64,000 bases of DNA from Candidatus Latescibacterota bacterium (GCA_965116885.1 OZ220741.1:4256001-4320000); one strand, 5' to 3'. Shown: positions 8,853 through 25,498, counted from the first letter of the stretch. Notes: generated by a model from the letters alone, not told the origin. Numbers and translations are program-made.

Positions 8853-8897
8853 GTTATGAACCGTTATTTTATTTTTTGTATGGTTTGCTTCGAGCAT

Positions 8898-9194
8898 CTA
8901 CTCGTCCAAAGGCTCATGCAATGCTTTCTTGATCAGAACGCCAGCTTTGAAATAGCTCTTTCGCCGCGCAGGAACATAAACAATCTCGCCTGTGCGGGGG
9001 TTGCGTGCAGCGGGTTTTGGTTTGGTCGGCTTGATGCCCAGCACACCAAATCCCCTGATTTCGATTCGGTCACCGGCGATCAGGTTTTCGCGCATCGTGT
9101 TAAAAAGTGTATTTACAATCTCATAAGCGAGTTGTTTTTTGATTCCCAGACGATCGGAAATTTTTAACGCGATATCTTTTTTTGTCATTGTCAT
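8898..9194 (-). CDS. HU/IHF family DNA-binding protein
   Basis: MTKKDI, RIEIRGFG, ARNPRTGE.V.VPAR; GGGAGGA RBS before ATG 9194. Confidence 0.93.
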   Translation of the reverse strand: MTMTKKDIALKISDRLGIKKQLAYEIVNTLFNTMRENLIAGDRIEIRGFGVLGIKPTKPKPAARNPRTGEIVYVPARRKSYFKAGVLIKKALHEPLDE

Positions 9195-9353
9195 TCGGTC
9201 CTCCCATTTCACATATATTGTCACGACATTGGCTAATATAGCCCTAAACATCTAAGATGCAAGATAAAAATGTCTCACACTCGTCACAAAATTGAAAAAT
9301 TGCTTTTGCTTTGTATGTCGCTTATTTTATTATTGTTAGCGAGGATAATATAC

Positions 9354-10181
9354 ATGAGAACAAAATCGGAAACCAGTGTAATACACCGCGTCACGCGATA
9401 TGATGGCTCTACGGGCAAATCCGCGGATGATGTACTCGTCGTAGAGGAACCACTTGAAATTCGCGTTGCCGGAGAATCCGTTGCCGTGACCATGCGAACG
9501 CCGGGAGCGGACCGCGCCCTTGCGCTGGGATTTCTGTATGGTGAGGGCATCATCCGTGAAATCCGCGATATCGGGCGTGCAGAACACTGTGGGCGCCCGG
9601 GGACTCCTGAGTATGGAAATGTGATCGATGTTCTCCCTCGCCCGGGCGAGATGCTTGACCCCGAAAGGATTCGGGCGGGACGAAGAGGCACACTGACTTC
9701 ATCGGCGTGCGGGGTATGTGGGCGCGAGCAGATCGAAGATATGATGCAACGGTGCCAACCCATTGGCGACGCCCGTGCCGTTCAAGCGGCAATGATTTTT
9801 TTTGCACAGGAGCAAATGCGTCAATCTCAATATGTGTTTGCACAAACAGGGGGCGTTCATGCTGCTGCCGCATTTTCTGAAACAGGGGATATGTATTGCT
9901 GTTTTGAAGATATTGGCCGGCACAATGCAGTAGATAAGGTTGTGGGGCATTTGCTCGAAACGCATAACATAGTAGAAGGGGAGGGAGTTCAGATACTCGC
10001 GGTGAGCAGCAGAGCGAGTTTTGAAATCGTACAAAAGGCCGTTGTTGCACGCATACCTGTCGTGGTTGCCGTATCTGCGGCGAGTTCATTGGCAGCAGAT
10101 CTCGCACAGGCGATGGGAATAACTCTTATTGGCTTTGCGCGCGGCAACAGGATGGTCATTTATACAGGGACTGTGCAATAG
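9354..10181 (+). CDS. fdhD: Formate dehydrogenase accessory sulfurtransferase
   Basis: EEPLEI, TMRTPG, SSACGVCG, TGGVHAAA, EDIGRHNAVDK, SSRASFE; GAGG RBS before ATG 9354. Confidence 0.95.
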   Translation: MRTKSETSVIHRVTRYDGSTGKSADDVLVVEEPLEIRVAGESVAVTMRTPGADRALALGFLYGEGIIREIRDIGRAEHCGRPGTPEYGNVIDVLPRPGEMLDPERIRAGRRGTLTSSACGVCGREQIEDMMQRCQPIGDARAVQAAMIFFAQEQMRQSQYVFAQTGGVHAAAAFSETGDMYCCFEDIGRHNAVDKVVGHLLETHNIVEGEGVQILAVSSRASFEIVQKAVVARIPVVVAVSAASSLAADLAQAMGITLIGFARGNRMVIYTGTVQ

Positions 10182-10212
10182 GGTGGGGAAGAAGGTCTCG
10201 CATCCCTCTATA

Positions 10213-10240
10213 AGCGGTTGGGCCAATTGGCCCAACCGCT
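10213..10240. repeat. 28-bp perfect palindrome
   Basis: AGCGGTTGGGCCAATTGGCCCAACCGCT equals its own reverse complement. Confidence 0.95.
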
Positions 10241-10256
10241 AAATTTTGCCGTCTAT

Positions 10257-10272
10257 GGGAACACTATTTGCA
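10257..10272 (+). promoter_or_regulatory. Possible sigma-54 promoter for the transporter operon
   Basis: GGGAACA-CTAT-TTGCA: GG-N10-GC spacing with a canonical -12 box and an imperfect -24 box. Confidence 0.45.
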
Positions 10273-10318
10273 AATTTCAGGTCTAATCGTTGGCAAAGGT
10301 AAATGAGGAGCCATACGG

Positions 10319-11212
10319 ATGATCATTCGGATTTCAAACCTGACAAAAATATATCGCCGTGGCGCGGTTCCCGCCCTGGATGATGTCACATTGACCATTC
10401 CTCACGGAACATTTGGTCTGCTGGGACCCAATGGTGCGGGCAAGACAACGCTGATTAAAATTTTATCGACTCAGATGGACGCATCGAGCGGCAACGTGAC
10501 CATGGATGAGTTTGACCTCGTAAAAGACCGCACAGAAATTCGCCGGCGCCTGGGATATTTGCCCCAGCACTTTGGGACGTATCCGCAATTGACGGCCTGG
10601 GAATTTCTCGATTATATGGCTGTTTTGGGCGGCATGCATAATAGAAGTTCGCGTTTGAATCGCGTGGAGCAAGCTCTAAACGAAGTCGGCTTGTACGAAG
10701 CGCGCAATCGGCGTTCGGGCACATTTTCCGGTGGCATGATGCGCCGCCTTGGTATTGCACAAACCATTTTGACCGATCCAGAGTTTCTCATTGTCGATGA
10801 ACCCACCGTAGGACTCGACCCGGAAGAGCGCATCCGATTCCGGGGGATTTTGGGACGCTTGAGCAGCGATCGTGCAATTTTGATTTCCACGCATATTGTG
10901 GGCGACATTTCAAGCACCTGTGAAGATCTTGCGGTTTTGGATACCGGCCGGCTGATCTTTCGCGGTTCTCCCGGAGAACTCATTTCAAAAGCCGATGGCA
11001 AAACGTGGGAAGTACAGGTTGATGACGCTGGCTTTGAAATGCTGTCGCGTGTGTTTCGCGTGGTCACAGTAAATGTTGAGGGCGACATGATGCGTTTGCG
11101 TATGGTGGGCGATGGCGAGCCACCCGCTGATGCCGAAGCAGTCGCGCCCAATCTCGAAGATGCCTATGTCTATTTTGTCGGAGGCGATACCACAGGCGAA
11201 ATTGCCGCTTAA
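10319..11212 (+). CDS. ABC-2 type transporter ATP-binding protein
   Basis: GPNGAGKTT, GYLPQ, FSGGM, VDEPTVGLDP, STH, LEDAY. Confidence 0.95.
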   Translation: MIIRISNLTKIYRRGAVPALDDVTLTIPHGTFGLLGPNGAGKTTLIKILSTQMDASSGNVTMDEFDLVKDRTEIRRRLGYLPQHFGTYPQLTAWEFLDYMAVLGGMHNRSSRLNRVEQALNEVGLYEARNRRSGTFSGGMMRRLGIAQTILTDPEFLIVDEPTVGLDPEERIRFRGILGRLSSDRAILISTHIVGDISSTCEDLAVLDTGRLIFRGSPGELISKADGKTWEVQVDDAGFEMLSRVFRVVTVNVEGDMMRLRMVGDGEPPADAEAVAPNLEDAYVYFVGGDTTGEIAA

Positions 11213-11226
11213 AGGATTAATACACT

Positions 11227-14200
11227 ATGCTATCTATTTTTTACAATGTATGGGGCGTTGCGCGTTATGAGCGCAAAATGCTCTTGAGAACCACAAAATT
11301 CCGTATTTTGGGCGGCCTGGGTATGAGTATTCCCGTTTTGCTCGGCATCGGCTTTGCCATAGCAGAGGCCAACGGTGCTGAGCTACCTGTGGGCATTGAT
11401 TCTTATGTTCCATTTTTGGTGTACAGTTTCTTACAGACTATTGTCATTGCATTTATTGTGGGGGATTTTAGAGCAGCGGATGAACAGGCACATATTTACG
11501 AAGTTGTAGCCGGGCGTCCCATTTCAACTGCGGAGCTGGTTGCGGGTAAGTATCTGGGCATTGTTAGTGCGCTTATCTTTTTGAGCCTGGGCGTTCTACT
11601 TTTAACCCTGAGTATCCAGGCTGCAAAAATCAGCATGACGGGTAATCCATTTACAATAAAACCCTATATCAGCTACCTCGTGCTCATGAACCTGCCCGCC
11701 CTGATTTTTATGTCTTCTGTAACATTTTTCCTGGGTGCAGTGTTGCGACGACAAGCGGCAGTTGCTCTGATAGTGATCGGATATTTGCTGGCCGTCCTGT
11801 TATTCCTCGGCAGGCGATATGACGGCATCTACGACTTTGGTGCTTTTTTTACGCCTCTGTATTATTCCGACCTGATTGGTCTGGCAGATATTACGCAAGT
11901 GGGACTACAACGCCTGTTTTACATCTTACTCGGCATTGGATTTTTTGGCTTTTCAATTGATTGGTATCCCCGTCTTGCACATTCCATAGTCGCGCGGTGG
12001 TTTGGCCGAGGATGCGCGCTGACCGGTTTTGGTCTGGCTGTGGGCCTTTACTTTTATATGGATGCAGACGCGCAAGACGGGAAAGCGTATCGCACCTCGT
12101 TGTTAGAGCAACAGGAAGCAGTTGCGAATATTTCCGTCGCGGAAATAACCCATTACGATCTGGCATTGACGCTTTTGGGAGAGGAGCCGCTTGCTGCCTC
12201 AGGTACGATTAGATTGAAAAATCCCCACGAAGCGCCACTCGATACGCTGATTCTTTTGCTCAATCCCGGATTTAAAATCCAGAGTCTGATGCGCGGCGAT
12301 GGCGGCACAATAGCGTGGGAGCGGATGGGAAGTGTGATCCGCGTCGTGCCCGACAACCCTCTGCAATCGGAGCAAGCACTCGATCTGACATTGGCTTATG
12401 CGGGTGATATTAACACAGATGGTTTTGATCTCCAACGAGAAAAAGCCAGACCAAAGTTACGCAAACGCGAAGGGCCATTTGGTATATTTAATAAGGGCTC
12501 TTTGACGGCGTGGATTCGCGACAATTCCATCTTTTTGCCTCCGCGCAGCCGATGGTATCCCGTAACGGGCGTTGATTACGGCTATGAAGATGCGCGTGCG
12601 GTCTCTTTTTCAACGGCAAATTTGCAAATAACATATCCGCAAGGCATCGAAGTCATTACTCAGGGGCAGGTAGGCGAGGCTGATACGCTCGGCACACAGA
12701 TAACGCGCCAATGGATCGTCGAAAAACCCGTGCCCGTCCTGTCGCTAAATGCAGGCGAATATCGCGTTTATCGCGCGACCATTCACGACGTCGAATGCGC
12801 CCTTTACGCCCATCCATCCCATCTGCGTCCGGTCCGATTTTTTGAAGGTGCCGAAGAAGAGATTTTGCGTGCGCTTGAGCAAATCATGGACGCAATGGAA
12901 CAAGAATCGGGCATGAAATATCCCTATCCCAGTCTTTCTTTAGTAGAAATCCCCTTCCATGTTCAATGGTATTACGAAGGCTGGGAAGAAAAGGGCGGGT
13001 TGACACAGCCCGGCGTGTTGATGATTGAAGAGGATGTGTTCATGAGGCAGCAATTTACCCGAGATTTTAAGCGTTCTCAAGAGCGCTCACGCGGCAATCG
13101 TGAACCCAAAGATATTAAAAAAGATCTTTTGGTACGCGCTGTTTTTTCGACCTTTTTTTCCAGAGAAGGAAATTCGGGTAGGCAGGGACAACCCGGTGGG
13201 TTATTTCGCAGCCCTGTTGTTCAACTCTGGGCTTATGACAAGCAGTTTGTGGGCGAACATCATTCCCTTCTCAAAAAGGGCATGCCCCTGTATCTCCAAA
13301 ATGATTTGAGTTCCAATATGACCTCTGCTTTTTATTCGAGCCAACGACGCGGTGGTGGTGGCGATAGGGGGCGTGGCGGTCGCGATGGTCCCGGTGGGCG
13401 CGGTGGTCCCGGTGGGCGCTTCGGGTCGGGCGGGGGATCGGGTGCTGCCTGGGATACGTTAATTGCGAAAATGCAGCGAAAGTCGTTTGCCGATTTGAAT
13501 CCCGAAAAGCAAGCCGGCCTCTATCGCCAGGTTCTCGACGCCAAGGGGCCCGCACTTTTTCAAATGATGGAATCTTTTTTGGGGGAGGAAACATTTCGCA
13601 CGGTCTTAGACGACATAGACCACAATCACAAATACGAAAACATTGATTTTTCGACCTTTGAACGCGCTGCTGTGGGCGATACCACAGAAAGTGCAGAGAG
13701 CCAAAAATTGCAACGCCTCGTCAACGACTGGATTTTCAGTACAGAAATCCCGGGCTATACTCTTACAAGGGTAAAAGCCCTGAAAATGGACGACGGATTT
13801 GGAATGGTGGTCTATCAATTGATTCTGAGAATTAAGAATAGCGAACCGGGCAGGGGATATGTGCAAATTACGGCTACGGGGCGAGGCGATGAAGCCCTGA
13901 AGGGCGTAGAGATTGAAGGCGGACAGGAAATTGAAGTGTCGATGGTCTTGTGGGAACAGCCCTTCAGGGTGATGGTCGAACCCTTTTTTGCACGCAATCG
14001 ACGACCTCTTATGTCACCCGTGCGCGTTCCCGAAGATGTCACAGAGGGATTTCCGGTCGCTTATGTCAAAGACGTGACGGGCGAAGAGTCTGGTCCTGTT
14101 GAGATTATTGTAGATAATGACGACGATGAATTTTCTATGCCCGTGCGACGTGCAACGCGCTACTTCCGTCCGGGACTCAAAGGCGGCAACTGGCGCGAAC

Positions 14201-14715
14201 AAGGCCTGCCAATGGCTTTCGGACGATTTGAGACAAATTATCGAAGAAAGTCTCAAGGGGATGGTGCACAGCCTGCGGTTTGGGCAGCGCAAATGCCCAG
14301 AGACGGCGAGTTTGATGTAAGTTTCTATTTTGTCGATCCCGCAATGGCCAGGCGCATTCGAATTGCATCGACCTTTACACTCACGGTTTTTCACGGGGGC
14401 AAAGCCGATACACTCGAAATAGAACGCGACCAGATGAAAGCGGGATGGAATTATCTGGGGCGATACAAATTTACCGAGGGCGAAGAAGCCGCAGTCGAAT
14501 TGTCTGACCGCGCGGAAGGGCGAGGGGGGCTCTATGCCGATGCCGTGCGATGGCGCTTTTTTGATCCGGAAAACCCCGATGCCTACGAAGATGAAATGCC
14601 CACCTTTACTGGGCGCGGCAGAGGTGGACCAGGTGGTGGGCCTGGGGGGCGCGGCGGGGATGGTAGGCGAGGTCCCGGTGGTAACAGAGGTGGCGGCGGG
14701 TTTTTGGGCTTTTAA
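11227..14715 (+). CDS. ABC-2 permease fused to an M1-aminopeptidase-like domain lacking HExxH and a C-terminal golvesin/CBM-like domain
   Basis: About 7 N-terminal TM segments; ITHYDL, SRWYP, YPYP.LSLVE, KGP.LF; tail IIVDNDD...GWNYLG.Y.F...ADAVRW; two RGG-rich tracts. Confidence 0.75.
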   Translation: MLSIFYNVWGVARYERKMLLRTTKFRILGGLGMSIPVLLGIGFAIAEANGAELPVGIDSYVPFLVYSFLQTIVIAFIVGDFRAADEQAHIYEVVAGRPISTAELVAGKYLGIVSALIFLSLGVLLLTLSIQAAKISMTGNPFTIKPYISYLVLMNLPALIFMSSVTFFLGAVLRRQAAVALIVIGYLLAVLLFLGRRYDGIYDFGAFFTPLYYSDLIGLADITQVGLQRLFYILLGIGFFGFSIDWYPRLAHSIVARWFGRGCALTGFGLAVGLYFYMDADAQDGKAYRTSLLEQQEAVANISVAEITHYDLALTLLGEEPLAASGTIRLKNPHEAPLDTLILLLNPGFKIQSLMRGDGGTIAWERMGSVIRVVPDNPLQSEQALDLTLAYAGDINTDGFDLQREKARPKLRKREGPFGIFNKGSLTAWIRDNSIFLPPRSRWYPVTGVDYGYEDARAVSFSTANLQITYPQGIEVITQGQVGEADTLGTQITRQWIVEKPVPVLSLNAGEYRVYRATIHDVECALYAHPSHLRPVRFFEGAEEEILRALEQIMDAMEQESGMKYPYPSLSLVEIPFHVQWYYEGWEEKGGLTQPGVLMIEEDVFMRQQFTRDFKRSQERSRGNREPKDIKKDLLVRAVFSTFFSREGNSGRQGQPGGLFRSPVVQLWAYDKQFVGEHHSLLKKGMPLYLQNDLSSNMTSAFYSSQRRGGGGDRGRGGRDGPGGRGGPGGRFGSGGGSGAAWDTLIAKMQRKSFADLNPEKQAGLYRQVLDAKGPALFQMMESFLGEETFRTVLDDIDHNHKYENIDFSTFERAAVGDTTESAESQKLQRLVNDWIFSTEIPGYTLTRVKALKMDDGFGMVVYQLILRIKNSEPGRGYVQITATGRGDEALKGVEIEGGQEIEVSMVLWEQPFRVMVEPFFARNRRPLMSPVRVPEDVTEGFPVAYVKDVTGEESGPVEIIVDNDDDEFSMPVRRATRYFRPGLKGGNWREQGLPMAFGRFETNYRRKSQGDGAQPAVWAAQMPRDGEFDVSFYFVDPAMARRIRIASTFTLTVFHGGKADTLEIERDQMKAGWNYLGRYKFTEGEEAAVELSDRAEGRGGLYADAVRWRFFDPENPDAYEDEMPTFTGRGRGGPGGGPGGRGGDGRRGPGGNRGGGGFLGF

Positions 14716-14732
14716 TTTAAGGGAGGCTGGAC

Positions 14733-15800
14733 GTGAAGTTTGATTTTTGCTCAAAATTTCTGTTGGCAATTGTCCTTTGTGGGATAGTCGCCTGCGATCA
14801 ACAGGCGGAACAGCGCACAGTTGATCTGACGGTCCCCGTTACTGTTCAATCCGTAGAGACGGGAACAATAGAATCCATTGTGACAGCTACCGGAACACTC
14901 AGGCCCGTGCGCGAAGCCCAGATTACAACGGAGATTCGGGGAAGTCTGTACTGGAGCAAAGGGGGTAACAACCGCTTGCTCGCCAAAGGATCAGAGGTTA
15001 GAAGGGGGCAGACTATAGCCAGGCTCGACAGCGATGAATGGGTTGTTGGGGCGCGGGTGGAAGCGCGCAAACTGGCGGTTGAAACAGCCAAGCGAACGCT
15101 AAAAGAACAGGAAACCCTGTTTAGCCGACAACTTTCAACGGAAATGGCCGTTGAAAGTGCGCGTAGAGCCTGGGCCGATGCAGAAGCCAATTATCAGGAT
15201 GCCCTCATCAAGATCGATAAAACTAAGCTTTTAGCCCCCATTCAGGGCGTGCTATCGGAACTCGCGGATATTACGCAGGGAACGCTGGTGACTCCGAATA
15301 CCGCAATTGCGAAAATTATGGATTATTCACAGGTATTTGTCGATCTGAAAATCCCCAATGCCCAGATTATTAATGTGGAATTAGGCCAGGGTATCCGCGT
15401 GAGCAATTACGCTTTGCCCGAAGAAGTTTTTGAGGGCGAAATTGTCGAGATGGATCCGGCTATTGATCCGGTCACGCGCACGGTTCAGGTCGTCGGAATG
15501 GTCGATAATCCCGACTTGCTGTTGCGGGCGGGGATGTTTGTCAAAACAGAAATAGTCACGGAATCGCGGCAAAATGTCGTACTTATTACGCGCAATCTCG
15601 TTTTGCGGCGGCGAAATCAGAAGGTCGTTTTCGTCGAAGAAGAAGGCCGCGCACAACAACGCGAAGTCGAAACAGGTCTGGAAGACCGAGACCGCGTGGA
15701 AATTGTGGTAGGACTTGAACCAGGTGAACAGTTGATCACGAGCAATTACGAAACGCTGAGGCCGCGAACTCGAGTGCGGGTCACGGGAGATAGACGATGA
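14733..15800 (+). CDS. RND efflux periplasmic adaptor (MFP), probable lipoprotein
   Basis: Lipobox-like IVAC; G..V..GQ.IARLD, APIQG, IDPVTRT, LRAGMF. Confidence 0.93.
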   Translation: MKFDFCSKFLLAIVLCGIVACDQQAEQRTVDLTVPVTVQSVETGTIESIVTATGTLRPVREAQITTEIRGSLYWSKGGNNRLLAKGSEVRRGQTIARLDSDEWVVGARVEARKLAVETAKRTLKEQETLFSRQLSTEMAVESARRAWADAEANYQDALIKIDKTKLLAPIQGVLSELADITQGTLVTPNTAIAKIMDYSQVFVDLKIPNAQIINVELGQGIRVSNYALPEEVFEGEIVEMDPAIDPVTRTVQVVGMVDNPDLLLRAGMFVKTEIVTESRQNVVLITRNLVLRRRNQKVVFVEEEGRAQQREVETGLEDRDRVEIVVGLEPGEQLITSNYETLRPRTRVRVTGDRR

Positions 15801-18800
15801 ATTTGCCTGAATTTTCAACGCGATATCCCGTGACAATTGCCATGGCGACCCTCGCAGTAGTGTTGCTTGGCTGGATATCGCTGGACGGTTTGGGCACTGA
15901 TCTCTTGCCGGATCTTCAGACGCCAGTCGTCACCATAGACCTGACAGCACCGGGCAAATCGCCTGTCGAGATCGAAGAAAACTATACGCGTCGCCTCGAA
16001 CGCGATGTGAGCACGATTAACGGCGTCAAGCGCGTCTATTCGATTACCCGTTCAGGACAGGCCGTGGTCATTGCAGAATTTGCCTGGGATGCGGACATGG
16101 ATTACGGGTTGCTCGACGTGCAAAAAAGAGTGGGGCGCTATGCGGTCAATGAAGATGTATCACAGTTGGATGTGACGCGCGAAGATCCGCTCTCGCTTGC
16201 GGTGATGCGCATTGCGATTACAGCAGACGAAAACGCGGAACTCGACGCATTGATGGGTACGGTAGAGTTGTTGATCAAACCCAAATTGGAAGCCCTCGAC
16301 GGCGTGGCGTCTGCCGAGGTGGAAGGGGGAGCGGAAAAGGAAGTGCGCGTTACACTCGATCCTTATTTGCTCGAAGCGTTTGGGCTTTCATCCGATGCGG
16401 TCATCAATCGCATCGCACAAGCAAATGCCGATGTATCCGGAGGTACGCTCAGAGAAAATCAGCAGTCGTATCTGGTCAAAGCCCTCGGTCGCTTAGATGA
16501 CATAAACGATGTGCGGGAAGTCATCGTGGGAGAAAGGCGCGGGGGAGGGGGCACAGTTTCTGGCGATCGCGTGCCGGTACGCGTGCGCAACGTGGGCACG
16601 GTTGACCTGGAATATCAAGAGCGAGAAACCATTGTGCGCCTCGACGGACGGGAATGCGTTGGCCTCGCTATTTACAAAGAAGCCGGCAGCAATACAGTCG
16701 CCGTGGTCAATACGGTATTGGATGCGATAGACGATATCGAAGCAGACCTGAGCGGCATGCACTTCACAACCGTCGAAAACCAGGCGCGATTTGTCGAAGA
16801 CGCCATAGGAGAAGTCGAAACATCTGCCATTCACGGGGCATTTTTGGCGATTCTCGTGCTTTTGATCGCGTTGCGGAGCTGGACAGTGACGCTGGTGATC
16901 GGGTTGGCAATCCCCATTTCCGTATTGGCGACATTCACGCTTATGTACTTTGAGGGTTTGACCCTGAATATTATGACACTGGGTGGATTGGCTCTGGGCG
17001 CGGGCATGCTCGTTGACAATGCCATTGTGGTCATTGAAAATATTTATCGCCATCTCGAAAGCGGCGAGGATGCGCGCACAGCGTCGAGCCGCGGTGCCTC
17101 TGAAGTCGGCGTGGCAATTTTGGCTTCAACGCTGACGACCGTGGCTGTCTTCTTGCCCATTGTCTATTTGCAGGGGCTGGCGGGCAAACTCTTTGTGGAT
17201 CAGGCATGGACAGTTGCATTTTCTCTGTTGTCTTCTCTGGTTGTGGCAATGACGACGATTCCGATGCTGACATCGCGCATCTTTAGACGGTTGAATACGA
17301 CGCACAAAACGACTGTTCGGTCGGACAAATACTATCGGTTTCTCAATGGTATTTTGAACCGCAAACTCATCATGCTCGGCGTCGTATTGCTCATTCTGGG
17401 CGGAACCGGGTATATCGCCCGCGAGTTGCAGACCGAATTTATCCCGCGCGAAGATCAAGGGCTATTCCAAATTGACCTCACATTGTCCGAAGGCTCGCGT
17501 GTGGAACTGAGCGATCAGGTCGCCCTGCACGTCAAAGAGATTGTCGAAAGCGTTGGCGGGAGCGATGTGGCGCATGTGTACGCGCTGACCGGCCTCAACC
17601 CCGCTCGGATATCGACCGGAGGCGAACCGACGGGTCCCAATCGCGCGACTCTATCGGTGGCGTTGCACACACAGCGGTCGCGCAGCGTCAGCGAATTGGT
17701 GCGCGACCTGGATCCCATTTTAAGTGCCATGCCCGATATCGAAGTGAAATACAAGCTGCACGAAACCGCGCTTGAAGGCGTGATGGGAGGACAAGAAGCA
17801 CCCATTCAGGTCGAAGTGTCCGGGGAAAATCTCGATATTTTGGCGCGTATCACCAAAGAACTTCAGGCGAGGATCGAGGGTCTTCCCTCGGTGTATAATG
17901 TGCGCACGAGTTTTCAGGGCGGGCAGCCAGAAGTCGATCTGGCGATTCGCGATGAGGTAGCGGCGGCATTCGGATTGACCACCCAGACCATCAGCCGCAC
18001 ATTGGAAAGACAACTATCCGGTGAAGTTGCTGGCGAACTATCTAAAGACCAGCGCACGCGGGATATCCGGGTAAAATATCGAGATATTGATCTGCGCGAA
18101 CTCCACACCATGCAAATCGAAGGAACAGATGGCGCGATCCTGACGTTGGGGGATATTGCCGAGCTCAATATTATTGAAGGTCCCCGCGAAATTTTGAGAG
18201 AAGATCAGCGTCGCGTAGGGCGCATTACGGGATATCTCACAGAAGGACGCATTTTAAGTGAAGCCGTTGCCGACGTACGCGCCACCATGCAGGAAGTGGT
18301 TGTGCCGTCGGGGTATCGCGTTGAAATTGGCGGGGAAGAGCGCGAACGTGCAGCGTCATTTGAAAGTCTCAAATTCGCACTTCTGCTTTCGATTGTGCTG
18401 GTCTATATGGTTATGGCGTCGCTATTTGAATCCACGCTCCATCCATTCACAGTCATGTTTTCCGTTCCATTAGCCGGCGTCGGCGTGATATTTGGATTCT
18501 ATCTTTTAGGTGAACCGCTCAGTGTGATGGCTTATATCGGCATCATTATGCTGGGCGGTATTGCGGTCAACGATGCGATCATTCTCGTGGATCGCATCAA
18601 CCAGCTCAGGCAAGCTAGCCTGACGTTGCGAGAAGCGATCCTACAGGGCGGTCAGGACCGCTTGCGCCCCATTATGATGACGAGTGCGACGACCATTCTC
18701 GCCCTGCTGCCCATGGCACTCGGTTTTGGCGAGGGGGCAAAATTGCGCGCACCGATGGCTATAGCCGTCATTGCTGGCCTCGTAACATCGACATTGATGA

Positions 18801-18862
18801 CCTTACTCGTAATACCCACCATGTATGAACTGGTTGACCGACTTCGGAGGAAATCCGCGTGA
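15797..18862 (+). CDS. RND transporter permease (AcrB/SwrC-like)
   Basis: GMLVDNAIVVIENI, ASTLTT, ASLFES, RLRPIMMT; 1021 aa. Confidence 0.95.
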   Translation: MNLPEFSTRYPVTIAMATLAVVLLGWISLDGLGTDLLPDLQTPVVTIDLTAPGKSPVEIEENYTRRLERDVSTINGVKRVYSITRSGQAVVIAEFAWDADMDYGLLDVQKRVGRYAVNEDVSQLDVTREDPLSLAVMRIAITADENAELDALMGTVELLIKPKLEALDGVASAEVEGGAEKEVRVTLDPYLLEAFGLSSDAVINRIAQANADVSGGTLRENQQSYLVKALGRLDDINDVREVIVGERRGGGGTVSGDRVPVRVRNVGTVDLEYQERETIVRLDGRECVGLAIYKEAGSNTVAVVNTVLDAIDDIEADLSGMHFTTVENQARFVEDAIGEVETSAIHGAFLAILVLLIALRSWTVTLVIGLAIPISVLATFTLMYFEGLTLNIMTLGGLALGAGMLVDNAIVVIENIYRHLESGEDARTASSRGASEVGVAILASTLTTVAVFLPIVYLQGLAGKLFVDQAWTVAFSLLSSLVVAMTTIPMLTSRIFRRLNTTHKTTVRSDKYYRFLNGILNRKLIMLGVVLLILGGTGYIARELQTEFIPREDQGLFQIDLTLSEGSRVELSDQVALHVKEIVESVGGSDVAHVYALTGLNPARISTGGEPTGPNRATLSVALHTQRSRSVSELVRDLDPILSAMPDIEVKYKLHETALEGVMGGQEAPIQVEVSGENLDILARITKELQARIEGLPSVYNVRTSFQGGQPEVDLAIRDEVAAAFGLTTQTISRTLERQLSGEVAGELSKDQRTRDIRVKYRDIDLRELHTMQIEGTDGAILTLGDIAELNIIEGPREILREDQRRVGRITGYLTEGRILSEAVADVRATMQEVVVPSGYRVEIGGEERERAASFESLKFALLLSIVLVYMVMASLFESTLHPFTVMFSVPLAGVGVIFGFYLLGEPLSVMAYIGIIMLGGIAVNDAIILVDRINQLRQASLTLREAILQGGQDRLRPIMMTSATTILALLPMALGFGEGAKLRAPMAIAVIAGLVTSTLMTLLVIPTMYELVDRLRRKSA

Positions 18863-21800
18863 CACTTGCTGGTATTGCCGTTCGGCGGCCCGTGACCACG
18901 GCCATGTTTTTTCTTGGTCTGGCTATTTTAGGCGCGATTTCTCTGGATCGATTGCCCGTTCAGATATTTCCCGAACTCGTCCGCCCGGAGGTCTTTGTCA
19001 CAGTCACTCAGCAGGGCTATTCGCCCGAACAGGTCGAGCGGGAATTGGTGATGCCCGTCGAGAGAGAGGTGGGCAAACTCGAAGGCATTGAGGCGTACGA
19101 ATCCTTTTCTCGCCAGAACAATGGCGGGGTACGCATTTCCTACGCGCCCAATACGGATATGAAATTCGCCCTGTTGCAGCTCGAAAGCCGCATCACGCGC
19201 CTGCAACCGCTTTTGCCCGAAAGAGCGCGGGTCAACATACAGCGCTTTGATTCCTCTGATCTGAGTGCTTCGGTGATGCAAATTCACGTGTTGGGCGAAG
19301 GCGATATAAACTGGTTGCGCGAATTTGCCGAGGAGAAAATCAGACCGGAATTGGAAGCGGTCGATGGCGTTGTCAACGCGCAGGTCCTGGGCGGGCAAAG
19401 GACGGCTATTGAAATTATTGTCGATCCATTGATGCTGCAGGCGCACCAGCTTTCGATGTCTGATGTTCGCAATCGCATCAATGCGTTTAATACGCGACGA
19501 CAATATCTCGGGCGAGTGTACGACGGCGACCAGGCTTATGCGGTCAGCATTCAGGGCCAATTTACAGACCTCGTGCAAATCCGCAGAGTCGTGATCAAAC
19601 CCGAATTGCCCCTGCACCTGGGCGACATTGCCAAAATTCTCTACGGCCTTCAGGAGCGTACAGATCTGCAACGCATCAATGGCAAAGCCGCCGTTGGCAT
19701 CCGCATTCAAAAAGACGATGAAGCCAATCTCATCGAACTTGCAGGAGAACTCGAAGACACCATCGAACGCGTCAACAGCGATCTTGCATACGAAAATATC
19801 CAACTCGTGATCAGCCAGAATCAGGCAGAGATTATGAACGAAGCCCTCAATTTCCTCAAACGGGCCGCTGTTGTCGGGGGATTGCTCGGGCTTTTTGTTT
19901 TGTTCTTATTTTTGAGAAATCTGCGCTTTGTCGCTGTTTTGCTCCTCGCCATTCCGTGTTCTTTGTTGCTCACATTTAATCTGATGTATATGTGGGATCT
20001 CAGTTTGAACGTGCTCTCGATGTGCGGCCTCGCGCTTGCAGTTGGCATGTTGATGGACAATGGCATTGTGGTCATGGAAAATATTTTCAAGCATTTTGAA
20101 CAGGGCAAATCTCCCAAAGAAGCCGCAAAAGCAGGAACCGATGAGATCGCACGCGCCGTTGTTGCGGCAACCGCGACTACAATTACTGTTTTTATACCCG
20201 TAGTTTTTATTCAAAGCGACTTTCAAGATATCCTGCGAGAATTCGCGCTGTCCATCGCCTTTCCTCTGCTTGCCTCTCTGCTCGTAGCCCTCACACTTGT
20301 GCCTGCCCTCGCATCGAAAACCCTTTCTCTCGCATCTCGACCACCGACGGGAACAGGCGCATTGATCGAGATGTACACGGTGTGCCTCAAAGCGGGCTTG
20401 CGCCACAGAATTAGCGTGTCACTGGGTATTGTCGGCGCGCTTGTCATCACGTTGATCATTTCTTTTTTCTTTATGCTACAACAAGATATCCGTCGTGAAG
20501 AAAGCCGTTTTACCGTCTATATCAGCATGCCCGAAGGCACGACTATTGAAGCCCTTGATGCTGTTGTTGGCGAAATTGAAAGTGCTGTGCGAGATCTCAA
20601 AGGTATAGATCGCTTTACGACCAGTATCAGCGAAACCCAGGCGAGTATCAATGTGGAACTTTTGCCCTTATCCGAACGCCCCGACCAGATTTCTGTCGAT
20701 CTCATCAAGGAAAATCTCGAAGAGTCATTCGGTGATGTCCAAAATGCGATTGTGAGTTATGAGGCCATCGCGCGCACGGGCAGGGGAGGTGGTGGGGGCC
20801 GAGGGGGAGGCGGGGGAGGCGGTATTCGGGGCACCCGTCAGGCCTCGGGCGGATTCAATCTGGAAGGGGGCGCGCCTTCGGAAATGGCTGTCATTCGCGG
20901 CTATGATTTTACGGTGCTTCAAATGCTTGCCGACGATCTGGTCTATCGCCTCGAAGAACTGGAGGAAATCGATCCGAATAGCGTAAGAGCCGATGCAGAA
21001 CGCGGCGCATCCGAAGTGCATGTGTTGCCCGATGAGGAAGTAATGTTTGATCGGCGATTGCAGGTGCGCCAAGTGCTCAATGCCGTATCCGACGCCAATC
21101 CGCGCGGTGCGCGATCCAATATTTCATTTCTCACGCCCGAAGGCACAGAAATCCCGATTGATGTTCGCAATGTCGAAGACCCCGAAGAAGAGGGGGAGGG
21201 GATTGCGGGATTGAGACAGACGCCGATTCTGGGTACGGGAGGGACTTACATTCCCCTTGTGGAAGTTTCGCATGTGCGCCGGGATCAGGGCAGGAGTATG
21301 ATTTTGCGCACCGATCAATCGCGGCGCGTGATTGTCTCGTACCGCTTTGCCGAAGAAATTTTGCAGTCTCAACCTCTGCTGGAAGCCTCCCGCGCCTATG
21401 TGCAAGCCGTGGTCTCTGAAATGGTGCTGCCCGAAGGGTATAGCATCGAAATGATCGAGGCAGAGGAAGAGACGATTTATTACTGGATGATGGGCATTGC
21501 CGCTCTATTGATTTTTATGATTTTGGCCTCTTTGTTTGAATCGCTTTCCGCGCCTGTGATTATTTTGTGTACGTTGCCCGCAGCAATTATTGGATCGTGC
21601 TGGGCACTGATCTTATCGGGGACGGGATTGACCTCGCAAGAAGCGCCAATGGCACTGTTGGGACTTATTGTTTTGAGCGGTATTGCCGTCAACAATGGGA
21701 TCGTGCTGATCGATGCGATTGAAACCCTTCGCCGCCGTGGGTTCAGGCGAGAACGCGCGGTGCTCACGGCGAGCCGGTCGCGCGTGCGTCCTGTTTTAAT

Positions 21801-23583
21801 GACTTCGGCAACCACCATTTTGGGCATGTTGCCTCTGGCACTCATATTTGGCGGCGATTACGAAATTTGGCCCCCCTTTGCGATTGTGGTAATCGGAGGG
21901 CTGGCTGTTTCAACGGTTTCCACCCTCGTATTTATTCCCGTGGTGTACATGGGAATTGATCAGACCAAAGCCTGGTTGACGGATATTGGGTGGTTCGGGA
22001 TCGTATTGGGAACAACGGCAGCCGCGGGATTGACATATTGGGTTGACGGTTATTACCAGAGTTTGTTCTGGACCTGTCTTTTGGCATTGCCAGCCTGGAT
22101 GTTGTGTATGGGTGTAATCTGGATAGTGCAACGCATTTATCGCGCGCGTATGGCTTCTCTTGCCGAGATCGGCAATATTGAACATCTCGAAATTCGCAAT
22201 CTGACCAAAATTTATGGCGCGCCGGGACGATTTAAGCACGAATGGGATCGCTTTAAGCGGCGTCATCAGCGCCTTTTAGAGCGCGGGCAGGTATTGATAG
22301 ATAAAAAGGCTATTAAGGACAGTTTGTGGTGGAAGTTACCACTTCTGGCACTTTTGATTTATTTGGAAACCTATTTTGAACAGGGAGCCTGGATATTTTT
22401 GGCAGGGCTTGCTATATGGGGCCTCGTGCATCACCTCATACTATGCGCGGCAGCTTTGCGCGATTTTCAGATTGAGAACAGATGGATATCACAAATCGCC
22501 CGATTGATTTTGCCGCTGGTCTTTATCGCCTTTATCCATTGGCGTTTGGAACTTATATCTTTGACCATCGCCACTACTGCAATCTACTTGCTCTATCGCA
22601 TCATCGGGTTTTTGGCAAATCGCGTTGGACAAGGTCGCGTTGACCCCGAGCATATACCGGGCAAATTAGGCCCTGTTAAAGGCATCGTGTACCGCGGGGC
22701 GGCAGCCGTTCCCCTGATTGGCGTTCCGCGCCCACAATTCCAGGCTCTCGGCGGTGTGAGTCTCGATATTCCGCGCGGGATGTTTGGGCTTTTGGGCCCC
22801 AATGGCGCGGGCAAGACCACGCTGATGCGGATTGTGTGTCGGGTTTTGTCGTCAAATTACGGGTCGGTACTCGCCAATGGCACAATACCGCTTACACATC
22901 GGAATATGCAGGGGGTGATTGGCTATTTGCCGCAGCACTTTGGCCTGTATCTGCACATGTCTGCGTATAATTATCTGGAATACCGCGCGCTTTTAGAGGG
23001 ATTTAAGGATGGGGTCGCGCGGCGCAAGCGCGTTCAAGAATGTCTGGAGCAGGTCAATCTGTGGGATAGGCGAGACGATCTGATTGGTTCGTTCTCTGGC
23101 GGTATGAAACAGCGCGTGGGCATTGCACAAACCCTGCTGCACTTACCGCAGATTATCGTAGTGGATGAACCGACAGCGGGATTGGACCCACTCGAGCGTA
23201 TCCGGTTCAGAAATCTGCTGGCGCGATTTAGCCAGGAAAAAATTATTATTTTTTCCACACATATTGTCGAAGATATTGCGGGCAGTTGCAACCGATTGGC
23301 CGTGCTGAATCACGGTAAGCTGCTTTATACGGGAACCCCGATTGAAATGCGCGATTTGGCGCGCGATAAGGTGTGGGAGGCTCTGCTGCCAGATCCGCGT
23401 TTTGAAGCACTGGAACGCGACCTGGATATGATTACACATGTGCGCGTGCCCGATGGGATTCGGGTGCGGTTTCTCGCCACTGATCCCATCCCAGAAGCGC
23501 GTGCTGTTGCGCCCACCCTCGAAGATGCGTATCTCTACCTTTTGCGACATGGCGATGAATACAAACAGTCTAACATGGCGTGA
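18859..23583 (+). CDS. RND permease fused to a C-terminal ABC ATPase domain
   Basis: Complete RND module (GMLMDNGIVV, RVRPVLMT), extra TM helices, then GPNGAGKTT, FSGGMKQR, VDEPTAGLDP, STH in one 1574-aa frame. Confidence 0.92.
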   Translation: MTLAGIAVRRPVTTAMFFLGLAILGAISLDRLPVQIFPELVRPEVFVTVTQQGYSPEQVERELVMPVEREVGKLEGIEAYESFSRQNNGGVRISYAPNTDMKFALLQLESRITRLQPLLPERARVNIQRFDSSDLSASVMQIHVLGEGDINWLREFAEEKIRPELEAVDGVVNAQVLGGQRTAIEIIVDPLMLQAHQLSMSDVRNRINAFNTRRQYLGRVYDGDQAYAVSIQGQFTDLVQIRRVVIKPELPLHLGDIAKILYGLQERTDLQRINGKAAVGIRIQKDDEANLIELAGELEDTIERVNSDLAYENIQLVISQNQAEIMNEALNFLKRAAVVGGLLGLFVLFLFLRNLRFVAVLLLAIPCSLLLTFNLMYMWDLSLNVLSMCGLALAVGMLMDNGIVVMENIFKHFEQGKSPKEAAKAGTDEIARAVVAATATTITVFIPVVFIQSDFQDILREFALSIAFPLLASLLVALTLVPALASKTLSLASRPPTGTGALIEMYTVCLKAGLRHRISVSLGIVGALVITLIISFFFMLQQDIRREESRFTVYISMPEGTTIEALDAVVGEIESAVRDLKGIDRFTTSISETQASINVELLPLSERPDQISVDLIKENLEESFGDVQNAIVSYEAIARTGRGGGGGRGGGGGGGIRGTRQASGGFNLEGGAPSEMAVIRGYDFTVLQMLADDLVYRLEELEEIDPNSVRADAERGASEVHVLPDEEVMFDRRLQVRQVLNAVSDANPRGARSNISFLTPEGTEIPIDVRNVEDPEEEGEGIAGLRQTPILGTGGTYIPLVEVSHVRRDQGRSMILRTDQSRRVIVSYRFAEEILQSQPLLEASRAYVQAVVSEMVLPEGYSIEMIEAEEETIYYWMMGIAALLIFMILASLFESLSAPVIILCTLPAAIIGSCWALILSGTGLTSQEAPMALLGLIVLSGIAVNNGIVLIDAIETLRRRGFRRERAVLTASRSRVRPVLMTSATTILGMLPLALIFGGDYEIWPPFAIVVIGGLAVSTVSTLVFIPVVYMGIDQTKAWLTDIGWFGIVLGTTAAAGLTYWVDGYYQSLFWTCLLALPAWMLCMGVIWIVQRIYRARMASLAEIGNIEHLEIRNLTKIYGAPGRFKHEWDRFKRRHQRLLERGQVLIDKKAIKDSLWWKLPLLALLIYLETYFEQGAWIFLAGLAIWGLVHHLILCAAALRDFQIENRWISQIARLILPLVFIAFIHWRLELISLTIATTAIYLLYRIIGFLANRVGQGRVDPEHIPGKLGPVKGIVYRGAAAVPLIGVPRPQFQALGGVSLDIPRGMFGLLGPNGAGKTTLMRIVCRVLSSNYGSVLANGTIPLTHRNMQGVIGYLPQHFGLYLHMSAYNYLEYRALLEGFKDGVARRKRVQECLEQVNLWDRRDDLIGSFSGGMKQRVGIAQTLLHLPQIIVVDEPTAGLDPLERIRFRNLLARFSQEKIIIFSTHIVEDIAGSCNRLAVLNHGKLLYTGTPIEMRDLARDKVWEALLPDPRFEALERDLDMITHVRVPDGIRVRFLATDPIPEARAVAPTLEDAYLYLLRHGDEYKQSNMA

Positions 23584-24283
23584 GTTGCTTTTCTTTGTCG
23601 GGAAAATGCACAGTCTGAGCATGAGAATCGTTTTTCACCGCAAAATGATTTTTATGTTTGGCGGGATTGTCGCGTATTACGCAATTTTGTACGCGATTGC
23701 AATCTGGCGTCCAGGTGAAGGGCTTTCAGTCGAACAAGCCCTCCATGTATTGGTTGAAGTGCCGGGCACGGTGCTTGCAATTTACCTGACGATGGATCTG
23801 GTGTCGGGGGAGAGGGATAAGGATACGCTTGAAATTCTGTTCAGCACGGCGGTCAGCCACTACGCGACCTGGGCCGTGAGAATTGTGTCGATCAGCGTTG
23901 CGCTATTTGCCACGCTGATGGCAATGAGCACGATTTCCTACTATTTTTTTGCGGAGTTTCCCTATCTCCTGGGGGGATTGAATGCATGTATCCCTGCCTT
24001 TTTTATGGTAGGAGCCACATTTCTGTTTTCTGTCTTGTGTCGCAGTGGCAATGCGGCTGGCATGCTCGCCGTTGGCCTTTTGATTGCGATTTTGCTTTCG
24101 ACGGAGGCGTTTGAGGATACATCGTATTACCTTTTTCTCAAGCCATTTGACCCGCCTTCAGATTTAGATACCAGCCTGTGGGTAAATCGCGTGGTCTTAA
24201 ACCGCGCGGGCATTGCCATTCTGGGAATACTGTTCATTTTTCTCGCTCTGAGACGAATGATAGACCGCGAAAAGCTGCTGTGA
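23555..24283 (+). CDS. ABC-2 type permease
   Basis: About 6 TM segments; ERDKDTLEILFS motif; overlaps the upstream gene. Exact start (23549 or 23555) uncertain. Confidence 0.8.
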   Translation: MNTNSLTWRELLFFVGKMHSLSMRIVFHRKMIFMFGGIVAYYAILYAIAIWRPGEGLSVEQALHVLVEVPGTVLAIYLTMDLVSGERDKDTLEILFSTAVSHYATWAVRIVSISVALFATLMAMSTISYYFFAEFPYLLGGLNACIPAFFMVGATFLFSVLCRSGNAAGMLAVGLLIAILLSTEAFEDTSYYLFLKPFDPPSDLDTSLWVNRVVLNRAGIAILGILFIFLALRRMIDREKLL

Positions 24284-24297
24284 TAGAGTCAAAAGCG

Positions 24298-24319
24298 TCC
24301 GCAGATGACGCAGATGAAA
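24298..24319 (+). repeat. CGCAGAT tandem repeat (2 units)
   Basis: TCCGCAGATGACGCAGATGAAA; same motif recurs at 34936. Confidence 0.7.
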
Positions 24320-24340
24320 GTCAAAAGCAACATCCATAAG

Positions 24341-24375
24341 AAAGCCCCTTGTCAATACAGACCAGGGGGTTTTTT
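24341..24375 (+). terminator. Intrinsic terminator of the transporter operon
   Basis: AAAGCCCCTTG...CAGGGGGTTTTTT. Confidence 0.7.
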
Positions 24376-24425
24376 ATGCCATTATTCAACAAAACAAAAA
24401 CGCATCAACGAAGAAAAACAGCCCA

Positions 24426-24460
24426 AATCAGAAATACGCAAGTGCTAATCAGAAATACGC
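24426..24460. promoter_or_regulatory. 14-bp direct repeat with 21-bp period, candidate AraC-family operator
   Basis: AATCAGAAATACGC at 24426 and 24447, upstream of an AraC-type gene. Confidence 0.55.
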
Positions 24461-24691
24461 GAGGATTTTTTGAATTGCAATTACAGGTGTGATGGTGGTA
24501 TCATAAAAGAGCCGCCGACAAGACGAGAACAAGTCAACTGTCAGCGGCGGTAGTATCTCAAGCTGGGAACTTGAGAAGACTAAATGAAAAGTAACGACCT
24601 GAAGCGCGATTGTCAATATGTACGACTGCGTTTCATTGCACCTGAATAATGTGGTTTTAAAAATTTCACGGCGTACTGATGATGACAAAAG

Positions 24692-25498
24692 ATGGGCAAA
24701 CAGAAAATTCTTATTGCAGATCACGATTCCCGCGTTCTATCGACACTCACAGAATTTTTGAGTGATGAACCTTATGAGATATTCAAGGCGGCAAATGGAA
24801 TGGAAGGGCTTGACGTTTTAAGACGCGAGAAGATTGATCTTGCTATTGCTGAAAAGCATATCGCGGGTCTTGGTGGGATAGCATTTTTGAAGGCCGTGAA
24901 GGTAGAGAAAATTCAGACAAATATTTTGATCATGGGCGGGATTGAGCATATGGAATCAACAGAAAAAATACTCAAGAGTGGTGCTATAAGCGTACTCGAT
25001 AAACCCGTCAAGAAGGGTGACTTTTTGGCAAAGATCAAAGCATTTATGCCACCAAATAACGGCAGAAACTGGTCTGAGAACGGCCAGTCAGGATCGGAAG
25101 CCTCGCCTTCATACCCCGTCCCAGTACAGGTTTCACAAGACAAGTGGAAAACTGATTTGGAATCATTTTTGAATGAGCGTTACCACGATCCAGACCTGGA
25201 ATGTGATGTTCTCATGTGCTACTTCGATTTATCGCGGTCACATGTTTGTGCGCTATTCAAAAAATATTTTGACAAGACTTATCGTGAAGTATTGCGAGAG
25301 GTCAGAGTAGCACAGGTAGAGCGTTTCTTAAAAGAATCATCTCTGAGTGTGAATGAAATTGCACACCTGTGTGGGTTTCATTCATCAGATCGTTTGCGTG
25401 TGGCTTTCAAGAAGATACATGACATTTCTCCTACCCTTTACCGCAAAAAAGTTATAAGCGGAGAAATTCCAAGAAGGTCCGGAAGGTTCAAGCGATGA
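24692..25498 (+). CDS. Atypical response regulator: REC domain plus AraC HTH
   Basis: KILIADHD...DLAIAE...KP receiver; LS...LFKK, SVNEIAHLCGF, FKK...SPTLYR AraC signature. Confidence 0.9.
   Translation: MGKQKILIADHDSRVLSTLTEFLSDEPYEIFKAANGMEGLDVLRREKIDLAIAEKHIAGLGGIAFLKAVKVEKIQTNILIMGGIEHMESTEKILKSGAISVLDKPVKKGDFLAKIKAFMPPNNGRNWSENGQSGSEASPSYPVPVQVSQDKWKTDLESFLNERYHDPDLECDVLMCYFDLSRSHVCALFKKYFDKTYREVLREVRVAQVERFLKESSLSVNEIAHLCGFHSSDRLRVAFKKIHDISPTLYRKKVISGEIPRRSGRFKR

Follow-up and report, generated by a model that had tools for sequence, protein, structure and literature searches.

A conserved, putative envelope export cassette of Latescibacterota and other phyla contains an RND permease fused to an ABC ATPase

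Resistance-nodulation-division (RND) pumps are driven by protons and ATP-binding cassette (ABC) pumps by ATP, and the two are treated as alternative ways of powering efflux across the envelope. Here we describe a gene of a Candidatus Latescibacterota bacterium in which parts of the two are joined. In a 64,000-nt stretch of its complete 5.56-Mb genome (C1:4256001-4320000, hereafter "the window"), six plus-strand open reading frames (ORFs) at 10319-24283 encode one periplasmic adaptor (MFP), two RND permeases (RND1 and RND2), two ABC nucleotide-binding domains (NBD1 and NBD2) and two ABC-2-like transmembrane (TM) permeases, here called TMD_M1 and TMD6 (TMD, transmembrane domain), with NBD2 forming the C-terminal part of the RND2 protein (Table 1). 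This RND2-ATPase fusion is a genuine, conserved gene and no assembly artefact. We propose that the set is a conserved cassette for export across the envelope, in its Latescibacterota form, made up of a tripartite pump with two RND paralogues and an ABC-2-type exporter.

The preliminary description of this DNA had read an ATPase fused in frame to the second RND, a reading open to challenge from a stop or frameshift between the two parts or from homologues that are never fused. The frame is indeed open over its whole length, no stop or frameshift appears in the independent DNA contigs that cross the junction, and fusion is regular among the homologues. Specifically, contigs from two public sequencing runs pass the junction without indels (X3, 20770-24284; X2, 21669-22627; 0 gaps in each). 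A single contig from an RNA library (X15, depth 12.4) has a 2-nt deletion at 23381, in the ATPase part, that is absent from the X2 and X3 DNA contigs covering this position and that may stem from strain variation or from an error of assembly. This contig is what speaks for two genes having been joined by misassembly or by an overlooked frameshift, a reading that we consider refuted and to which we assign practically no probability: the X2 and X3 contigs are gap-free over both 23381 and the junction, the same architecture recurs at 53 independent loci and, among the 120 best relatives, in 110, and the junction is itself structured and conserved. A depth spike at 22524-22997 (400.8 in X2), with loose contig ends clustered at about 22793-22830, in the Walker A coding region, most likely reflects other organisms' contigs that match this conserved stretch. 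Joints in single X2 contigs were also seen (21713 to 21921, with side 27, and 13050 to 13204); such joints often come from other organisms.

The fused architecture is widespread. When residues 1040-1574 were searched against a collection of 5.8 billion proteins, limited to those of 865-2755 aa, the best 120 relatives all matched both ACR_tran (PF00873) and ABC_tran (PF00005), and 110 of them were at least 1455 aa long. Named sources of these best relatives are Gemmatimonadota, Latescibacterota, Acidobacteriota, KSB1, Calditrichota and Bacteroidota, and the closest named relatives of the fused gene come from Candidatus Latescibacterota metagenome-assembled genomes (MAGs; 98% and 94% identity). 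An exhaustive search of representative sequences likewise returned many matches of about 1550-1600 aa whose C-terminal ends align to the entire linker-plus-ATPase query. At the level of loci, 53 of the 80 fetched from a species-genome collection hold a fused ORF; the other 27 comprise 25 free ABC-2 ATPases elsewhere, one gene cut by a contig end (L074) and one broken into several ORFs (L046). The latter, in a long-read Prolixibacteraceae MAG, has both the fused gene and RND1 broken (10693-15437), which looks more like the result of sequencing frameshifts than like a natural split. Cultured carriers, Bacteroidota among them, include Draconibacterium mangrovi, Marivirga tractuosa, M. sericea, Parabacteroides massiliensis, Maribellus maritimus and Bacteroides sp. 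224.

The linker specific to the fusion (residues 1031-1290) occurs in 82 of 168 genomes and 27 of 49 genera of Latescibacterota, nearly always within open frames of >1500 aa; where completeness is 90% or higher and contamination no more than 5%, 32 of 52 genomes have it. The genome studied here has one copy, as only 1 of its 14 ATPase matches spans the linker. On a quick maximum-likelihood tree the fused ATPases (48 rows) form one group, with a Shimodaira-Hasegawa approximate likelihood ratio (SH-aLRT) of 100, and 29 operon-encoded free ATPases form another (83); this tree leaves open whether NBD1 and NBD2 are sisters.

How the two parts are joined is suggested by an AlphaFold2 (AF2) model of residues 1031-1574 built with 41 orthologues (mfc53da83c3b8, in which model residue i is protein residue 1030+i; predicted local distance difference test, pLDDT, 82.9). 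Past TM12 of the RND body, the modelled chain runs through two further TM helices (TM13-14), the 11-residue strand HLEIRNLTKIY, a short helix and four more TM helices (TM15-18), and then enters the ATPase at its second strand and Walker A. HLEIRNLTKIY has the sequence pattern of an ABC ATPase first strand, and its K1117 and Y1119 are the same throughout sets of 22 and of 41 sequences; DSSP assigns it as a strand, and the other strands of the model all belong to the ATPase. It probably pairs within the ATPase, whose beta-1/beta-2 hairpin would then be interrupted by the four-TM insertion, a segment present in 41 of 41 aligned orthologues. The C-terminus of an AcrB-type RND is cytoplasmic, and because even numbers of helices (two, then four) follow the cytoplasmic end of TM12, the ATPase is placed on the cytoplasmic side. 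No homology between TM13-18 and TMD6 was detected (hhalign E 0.23, probability 0.3%). The regulatory insertion of CFTR NBD1 is likewise located between the first two beta-strands of the ABC ATPase fold; whereas that insertion is a short soluble segment, the one in the fusion comprises about 150 residues and four TM helices. An ATPase split by four membrane helices is an unusual variation of the ABC fold.

The fused ATPase has kept its motifs. NBD2 shows no variation, whether in 22 or in 41 sequences, at Walker A (GPNGAGK), Q1359, the signature SGGMKQR, D1436-E1437 or H1468, and for NBD1 at least 90% of 27 rows (26 orthologues and the window) keep the Walker A, Q-loop, signature, Walker B and H-loop motifs. 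The closest solved folds to NBD2 in Foldseek are TM_1403 (4yer, E 2.3e-19) and NosF (7o0y, also 7osf). That the two ATPases are paralogues, as first suggested by the motifs GYLPQHFG, GLDP.ERIRFR, STHIV.DI and AVAP.LEDAY, holds up, all four being present in both proteins, which are 45% identical. On the GldA equivalog NBD1 scores 177.5 bits and NBD2 168 bits, below the cut-off of 402.6. A TMD6 orthologue stands immediately after the fusion in 49 of the 53 fused loci, the other four having no such ORF there, and it is most likely this immediately downstream permease that NBD2 energises.

Both RND parts have a full-length 12-TM body with two large periplasmic loops. They are about 29-30% identical to each other, score 617.9 (RND1) and 490.4 bits (RND2) on NF033617 (RND_permease_2), under its cut-off of 1250, and have MdtB (9lyq_B; RND1 E 5.6e-92) as top solved relative. 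Aligned to this structure, the AcrB relay positions D407 and D408 (TM4), K940 (TM10), and R971 and T978 (TM11) correspond in RND2 to D400, N401, N945, R977 and T982, and RND1 has the same pattern (D, N, N, R, T). Across orthologues, the TM4 Asp (46/46 fused, 45/45 RND1), the TM11 Arg (46/46 and 45/45) and the TM11 Thr (46/46 and 45/45) do not vary. The residue after the TM4 Asp is Asn in 41, Ser in 4 and Thr in 1 of the 46 fused sequences, and Asn in 43 and Asp in 2 of the 45 RND1 sequences; the TM10 position is Asn in 46 of 46 fused sequences and, in RND1, Asn in 43 and Ser in 2 of 45. The relay of E. coli AcrB (TM4 Asp-Asp, TM10 Lys, TM11 Arg and Thr) is therefore absent in its complete form, and is an unfit yardstick for this lineage: 7 of the genome's 15 stand-alone RND paralogues have the identical DN...NN pattern and none of the 15 has the TM10 Lys. 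A loss of the proton relay in the fused RND, with D408 and K940 replaced by Asn, was considered and rejected, as both replacements are shared with RND1 and these seven paralogues. Because the pattern recurs in them, the Asn residues are a family or lineage trait and not a loss linked to fusion. By sequence, the RND part of the fusion looks like an ordinary RND of this organism, with no sign of lost proton coupling, and the RNDs probably use the proton gradient.

The six-gene set of RND and ABC-2 components in the preliminary description was right in all six genes, and wrong in taking the second for a plain TMD, as TMD_M1 is a 1162-aa permease with a large periplasmic pseudo-peptidase. The genes are tightly packed, with spacers of 14 and 17 nt followed by overlaps of 4, 4 and 35 nt, the last of these between TMD6 and the 3' end of the fusion with the TMD6 start at 23549, which orthologues favour over the ORF-called 23438. 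Scanning 8400-25600 for promoters and terminators gave counts equal to those of shuffles (23 vs 17.7 +/- 4.2 and 20 vs 19.6 +/- 4.7) and no operon boundaries. Near-identical sequence occurs in public runs labelled sponge metagenome, from several studies. Two RNA libraries, from one study, hold contig pieces of all six genes, with bridges at NBD1/TMD_M1 (10270-11292), RND1/fusion (18757-19394) and fusion/TMD6 (22807-23842); no piece across 21900-22700 is among the RNA-library contigs listed. RNA libraries can contain DNA, their contigs do not show single transcripts, and contig depth cannot rank genes; these pieces are compatible with expression and do not prove it.

Synteny supports the set as a unit. 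The order NBD, TMD_M1, (OEP), MFP, RND1, fusion, TMD6 is kept in 53 of 53 loci wherever these reach far enough. Complete six-gene sets occur in 33 (30 exact, two with an additional RND gene downstream and one with split ORFs), and the remaining 20 are partial with order unchanged. One adaptor followed by two RND genes (MFP-RND1-RND2) is likewise found in the window and in the 53 fused loci, wherever the locus is long enough. The window has no TolC gene, as had been noticed at the outset, and all 14 OEP matches of the genome (7 genes) lie outside it. Elsewhere the duct is at hand: a gap of 1.0-3.5 kb separates TMD_M1 and MFP in 42 of the 44 loci that hold both genes, the two exceptions being Latescibacterota, and 6 of 6 gaps tested, in other phyla, encode an OEP-domain protein of about 500 aa. 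An in-operon OEP gene is absent from 6 of 6 Latescibacterota loci (the two, and four more genomes from three genera, without room for it). The missing TolC is a lineage trait of Latescibacterota and not a property of the system. Since the OEP gene lies inside the operon outside Latescibacterota, the pump is probably a tripartite one, and the general form of the cassette would be a seven-gene tripartite system whose outer-membrane factor Latescibacterota keep elsewhere in the genome. Conserved flanking genes that could name a substrate were not found in the loci, the top flank family (5 of 42 loci) being rimP-nusA-infB.

TMD_M1 was modelled from 33 sequences (AF2 model m55f2d6aa7be6, pLDDT 74.3) with seven long helices N-terminal of residue 298. 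After these come domains of beta-rich, mixed and helical make-up, then a beta-sandwich and the Golvesin_C sandwich (Golvesin_C E 6e-16), together about 860 residues. Because the N-terminus is basic and seven helices follow, the positive-inside rule indicates that this large domain should be periplasmic. The fold of the ectodomain is that of M1 aminopeptidases, with Foldseek matches to IRAP (4p8q, E 2.4e-17, about 660 columns [664]) and also ERAP1 at 11-12% identity, while Pfam Peptidase_M1 reaches 23.5 bits, under its cut-off of 27.7. Neither the HExxH zinc motif nor the GxMEN exopeptidase motif occurs in the window's TMD_M1 or in any of 42 orthologues. Carried by a permease, an M1 fold devoid of zinc motifs suggests that binding or hand-over takes place in the periplasm. 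The match of TMD_M1 to GldF (E 2e-4) scores 21.3 bits against an equivalog cut-off of 288.5.

A second ATPase/TMD_M1 pair, 82% and 70% identical to that of the window, lies at C1:1462569-1466779 (minus strand of locus L089, 8567-12834), and no RND gene was found near it within the 19.9 kb fetched, which suggests that the NBD1/TMD_M1 module can act as an ABC transporter alone. Downstream of this pair are genes for a GT4+GT28C glycosyltransferase, two proteins without Pfam matches, a GT4 protein and a UDP-GlcNAc 2-epimerase. Paralogues stand beside both copies, as the GT4+GT28C protein is 44% identical to that of window 25495-28020 and the epimerase 92% identical to that of 37217-38296. This gives a weak, lineage-specific hint of a glycan-related cargo for NBD1/TMD_M1; the glycosyltransferase neighbourhood is seen only beside this genome's two copies and is not conserved in the other loci.

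Table 1. Features of the cassette in the window (positions counted from the first nucleotide of the window; AF2 helix and strand ranges in model numbering).
Feature	Position	Strand	Description	Basis
NBD1	10319-11212	+	Free ABC-2-type ATPase, 297 aa	ABC_tran E 6e-31; top NCBIfam DrrA and GldA, both under cut-off
TMD_M1	11227-14715	+	7-TM ABC-2-like permease with periplasmic M1-aminopeptidase fold, beta-sandwich and Golvesin_C; 1162 aa	Model, Foldseek, Pfam
MFP	14733-15800	+	RND periplasmic adaptor, 355 aa	TIGR01730 185.5 bits (cut-off 94.9); HlyD_D23 E 2.4e-25
RND1	15797-18862	+	Complete RND permease, 1021 aa	ACR_tran residues 5-1013, 767.9 bits; 1021-position profile
RND2::NBD2	18859-23583	+	Fusion, 1574 aa; GTG start overlapping the RND1 stop	Single open frame; ACR_tran 603 bits and ABC_tran 1299-1440
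RND2 body	18859-21960	+	Residues 1-1034, 12-TM RND permease	NF033617 over residues 6-1034 (1009 positions)
TM13, TM14	21952-22164	+	Two extra TM helices past RND TM12	AF2 helices 2-36, 39-72; pLDDT about 85-93
HLEIRNLTKIY	22183-22215	+	Displaced first beta-strand of the ATPase (predicted)	AF2 strand 79-89; K1117, Y1119 invariant
TM15-18	22303-22629	+	Four-TM-helix insertion between ATPase beta-1 and beta-2 (predicted)	AF2 helices 119-140, 146-171, 178-200, 203-227
NBD2 core	22738-23580	+	Canonical ABC-2 ATPase with C-terminal domain	Invariant motifs; Foldseek TM_1403, NosF
TMD6	23549-24283	+	Small ABC-2-like permease, 244 aa	Weak Pfam ABC2_membrane_2/3; position after the fusion in orthologous loci

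Other features of the window were noted in passing. Gly/Arg-rich low-complexity stretches (GRGGGG...) lie at about 20806-20929, in the periplasmic part of RND2, and in TMD_M1 at 13312-13443 and at its C-terminus (14587-14712); those of TMD_M1 have a model pLDDT of <50, and that of RND2 is partly retained in the consensus of 22 fused homologues. The operon is followed by a gene for a response regulator with an AraC-type helix-turn-helix (24692-25498), glycosyltransferase genes (25495-28020 and 28033-29436) and, further on, the UDP-GlcNAc 2-epimerase gene at 37217-38296. Between these, 30975-36433 holds a gene for a CAAX-type (Rce1-like) protease, then one for a 1016-aa protein with two cyclic-nucleotide-binding domains, a C39 peptidase, an ABC membrane domain and an ATPase, then one for an HlyD-type adaptor; this is a peptide-export system, perhaps with cyclic-nucleotide input. 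Upstream, 5099-8440 encodes a protein of 1113 aa that has five lamin-tail domains and, at its C-terminus, a weak FlgD_ig-like match.

As to function, we tentatively favour, while giving it somewhat less than an even chance, a model of export in two steps, in which a tether links an ATP-driven ABC-2 exporter to a two-RND pump that runs on protons. The pump would comprise the adaptor, RND1 and RND2, with the outer-membrane duct encoded elsewhere in Latescibacterota, and the tether would run from RND2 past TM12 into six TM helices that carry a complete canonical ABC ATPase on the cytoplasmic side. This covalent link means that an RND subunit and an ABC ATPase must lie together in one membrane assembly, and so bears out in part the preliminary description, which proposed a single super-complex coupling ATP- and proton-driven modules, perhaps for a large substrate. 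NBD1 and TMD_M1 would either be an ABC-2 module in their own right or complete the one to which NBD2 and TMD6 belong, and the zinc-less M1 fold would be a periplasmic binding or hand-over domain, not an enzyme. Using ATP, the ABC-2 modules would let the substrate leave the cytoplasm or the inner membrane; the adjacent proton-driven RND trimer would pick it up from the periplasmic side and drive it out via the adaptor and the outer-membrane duct. The fusion would thereby provide co-localisation and a fixed stoichiometry, and would not make the RND pump itself ATP-powered.

Several points weigh against this model. RND pumps assemble as trimers, ABC ATPases as dimers, which poses a problem of stoichiometry for the fusion. 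The conserved four-helix insert in the ATPase has no role in simple tethering and hints at a closer mechanical link; because it is left unexplained, bolder readings stay alive. TMD6 and TMD_M1 match ABC-2 permease families weakly, under Pfam and NCBIfam cut-offs (for TMD6, ABC2_membrane_2/3 at E 1e-3, with ABC2_membrane_3 matched by 5 of 38 orthologues), and the comparison of the TMD6 profile with that of the TMD_M1 N-terminus is suggestive at best (E 0.0036, probability 9%). Complex prediction for the C-terminal 544 residues of the fusion with TMD6 lends weak support (0.49, against 0.00 for the best of three controls; runs agree in at least 64% of contacts, partner pLDDT at least 71). Of 157 solved complexes, 116 reach the mark that this pair passes, as do 2 of 215 mismatched pairs, although at scores of 0.60 or below only 18 of the 157 do so, together with both passing mismatches; as ABC ATPase-permease complexes have already been solved, the pass may reflect likeness to these. 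Lastly, among the best 120 relatives of 294-937 aa, which mostly lie on short contigs or come with ACR_tran pieces, 11 are on contigs of at least 20 kb without ACR_tran. Natural unfused forms may be among them and would fit a dispensable tether.

The insert and the solved ATPase relatives leave room for a different role of ATP. In the NosDFY, MacB and LolCDE families, and likewise in FtsEX, ATP hydrolysis has a mechanotransducing role, and the ABC modules here might similarly be mechanotransducers or regulators: ATP would move periplasmic parts so that the RND pump is loaded, gated or assembled, and the ABC part itself would carry nothing across the inner membrane. The parts moved could be the M1-fold arm of TMD_M1, or the porter domain of RND2 via TM13-18. 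NosF of NosDFY (7o0y, 7osf) is among the closest solved ATPases, the periplasmic domain of TMD_M1, with a peptide-binding enzyme fold devoid of catalytic motifs, suits binding and hand-over, and the conserved four-TM insertion beside the RND membrane domain could pass on force. Yet Pfam finds no FtsX/MacB-type permease domain in any of the six proteins, and the second NBD/TMD_M1 pair stands without an RND gene nearby; we consider this role unlikely, if well worth bearing in mind. That same separate pair, the completeness and canonical make-up of every part, and the 11 possible unfused relatives would also fit two independent pumps, co-expressed and tethered, that serve different substrates or steps, the fusion fixing only co-expression or localisation. 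However, strict order and co-occurrence across phyla (33 complete sets and no locus of the 53 with another order) are difficult to account for unless function is shared, the fused ATPase clade has a single origin, and no other gene family is kept in the flanks beyond those 5 of 42 loci, so that independence appears distinctly improbable.

A more radical possibility is that RND2 is directly powered by ATP, an NBD2 dimer (with NBD1 or a second NBD2) driving the RND cycle via TM13-18 and replacing or supplementing the proton relay. The covalent link, the conserved helix bundle between the ATPase and the RND membrane domain, and the Asn residues at the E. coli-type D408 and K940 positions of the fused RND speak for it. 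Against this, RND1 and 7 of 15 stand-alone paralogues have the same Asn residues and none of the 15 the Lys, the TM4 Asp and the TM11 Arg and Thr are invariant in all 46 fused orthologues, and the ABC-2-like permease gene that follows the fusion in 49 of 53 loci offers the ATPase an ordinary partner; we deem direct powering very unlikely. No more probable than independent pumps, in our judgement, is a single dual-energised machine in which one NBD2-NBD1 heterodimer serves each RND trimer, this trimer holding one RND2, and the force of ATP would pass via TM13-18 into the RND2 membrane domain.

Full-text searches of the literature on RND-ABC fusions, and on permease/M1 fusions under their NCBI-style name, returned nothing relevant, and database names are generic only (e.g., "efflux RND transporter permease subunit", "AcrB/ABC-type ATPase subunit"). 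A mechanistic question is raised by a natural, covalent RND-ABC fusion whose fixed cassette also brings an adaptor, two ABC-2 permeases and, in its general form, a duct. If two-step export by tethered pumps is correct, bacteria hard-wire ATP-driven export at the inner membrane to export by proton-motive force at the outer membrane, which would be new to the efflux field; ATP control of an RND pump, if true, would be new to it as well, and ATP acting on the RND part categorically so. An RND pump gated or driven by both ATP and protons would represent a hybrid class of primary and secondary transporter without described precedent. With cultivable carriers that include the Bacteroidota genera Marivirga, Draconibacterium, Maribellus and Parabacteroides, the question is directly testable.

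Among known systems, the pump half of the cassette resembles MdtABC-TolC and MuxABC-OpmB, with which it shares one adaptor gene followed by two tandem RND genes, MdtB (9lyq_B) as top solved relative of both RNDs and, in other phyla, an in-operon OEP/TolC-like gene. MdtABC forms an MdtB2C heterotrimer. Unlike these systems, the cassette also encodes two ABC-2-like permeases and a free ATPase, its second RND is extended by six TM helices plus an ABC ATPase, its relay reads D-N...N instead of D-D...K, and its RNDs fall far below the MdtC (RND1 400, RND2 318 bits; cut-off 1774) and MdtB equivalogs (362 and 279 bits; cut-off 1584). The ABC half is of the DrrA/GldA/NosF kind (GldAFG, NosDFY, TM_1403): both NBDs match DrrA and GldA best, the fold of NBD2 is nearest to TM_1403 and NosF, and the permeases have weak GldF/ABC2_membrane matches. 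It differs in that every score falls short of its family cut-off, that four TM helices interrupt one of the ATPases, the one joined to an RND, and that one permease bears an M1-fold ectodomain. With MacAB-TolC the cassette shares an ATPase, a periplasmic adaptor and, probably, an outer-membrane duct in one export system, but it has no MacB/FtsX-type permease, and the complete RND pair is the adaptor's obvious partner. TMD_M1 has a likeness of its own in TCDB 3.A.1.145 (Myxococcus xanthus Q1D520), an uncharacterised protein of about 1200 aa described as an ABC-2-type membrane domain followed by an M1-family peptidase domain, with 13 putative TM segments and a zinc-dependent peptidase domain (PMC3924187). 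To the extent that this description allows comparison, layout and size are similar, whereas TMD_M1 has seven modelled TM helices and lacks HExxH and GxMEN. Judged by their sequences, the components thus appear to be of known kinds (an RND tripartite pump and an ABC-2 transporter), and what appears new is their combination.

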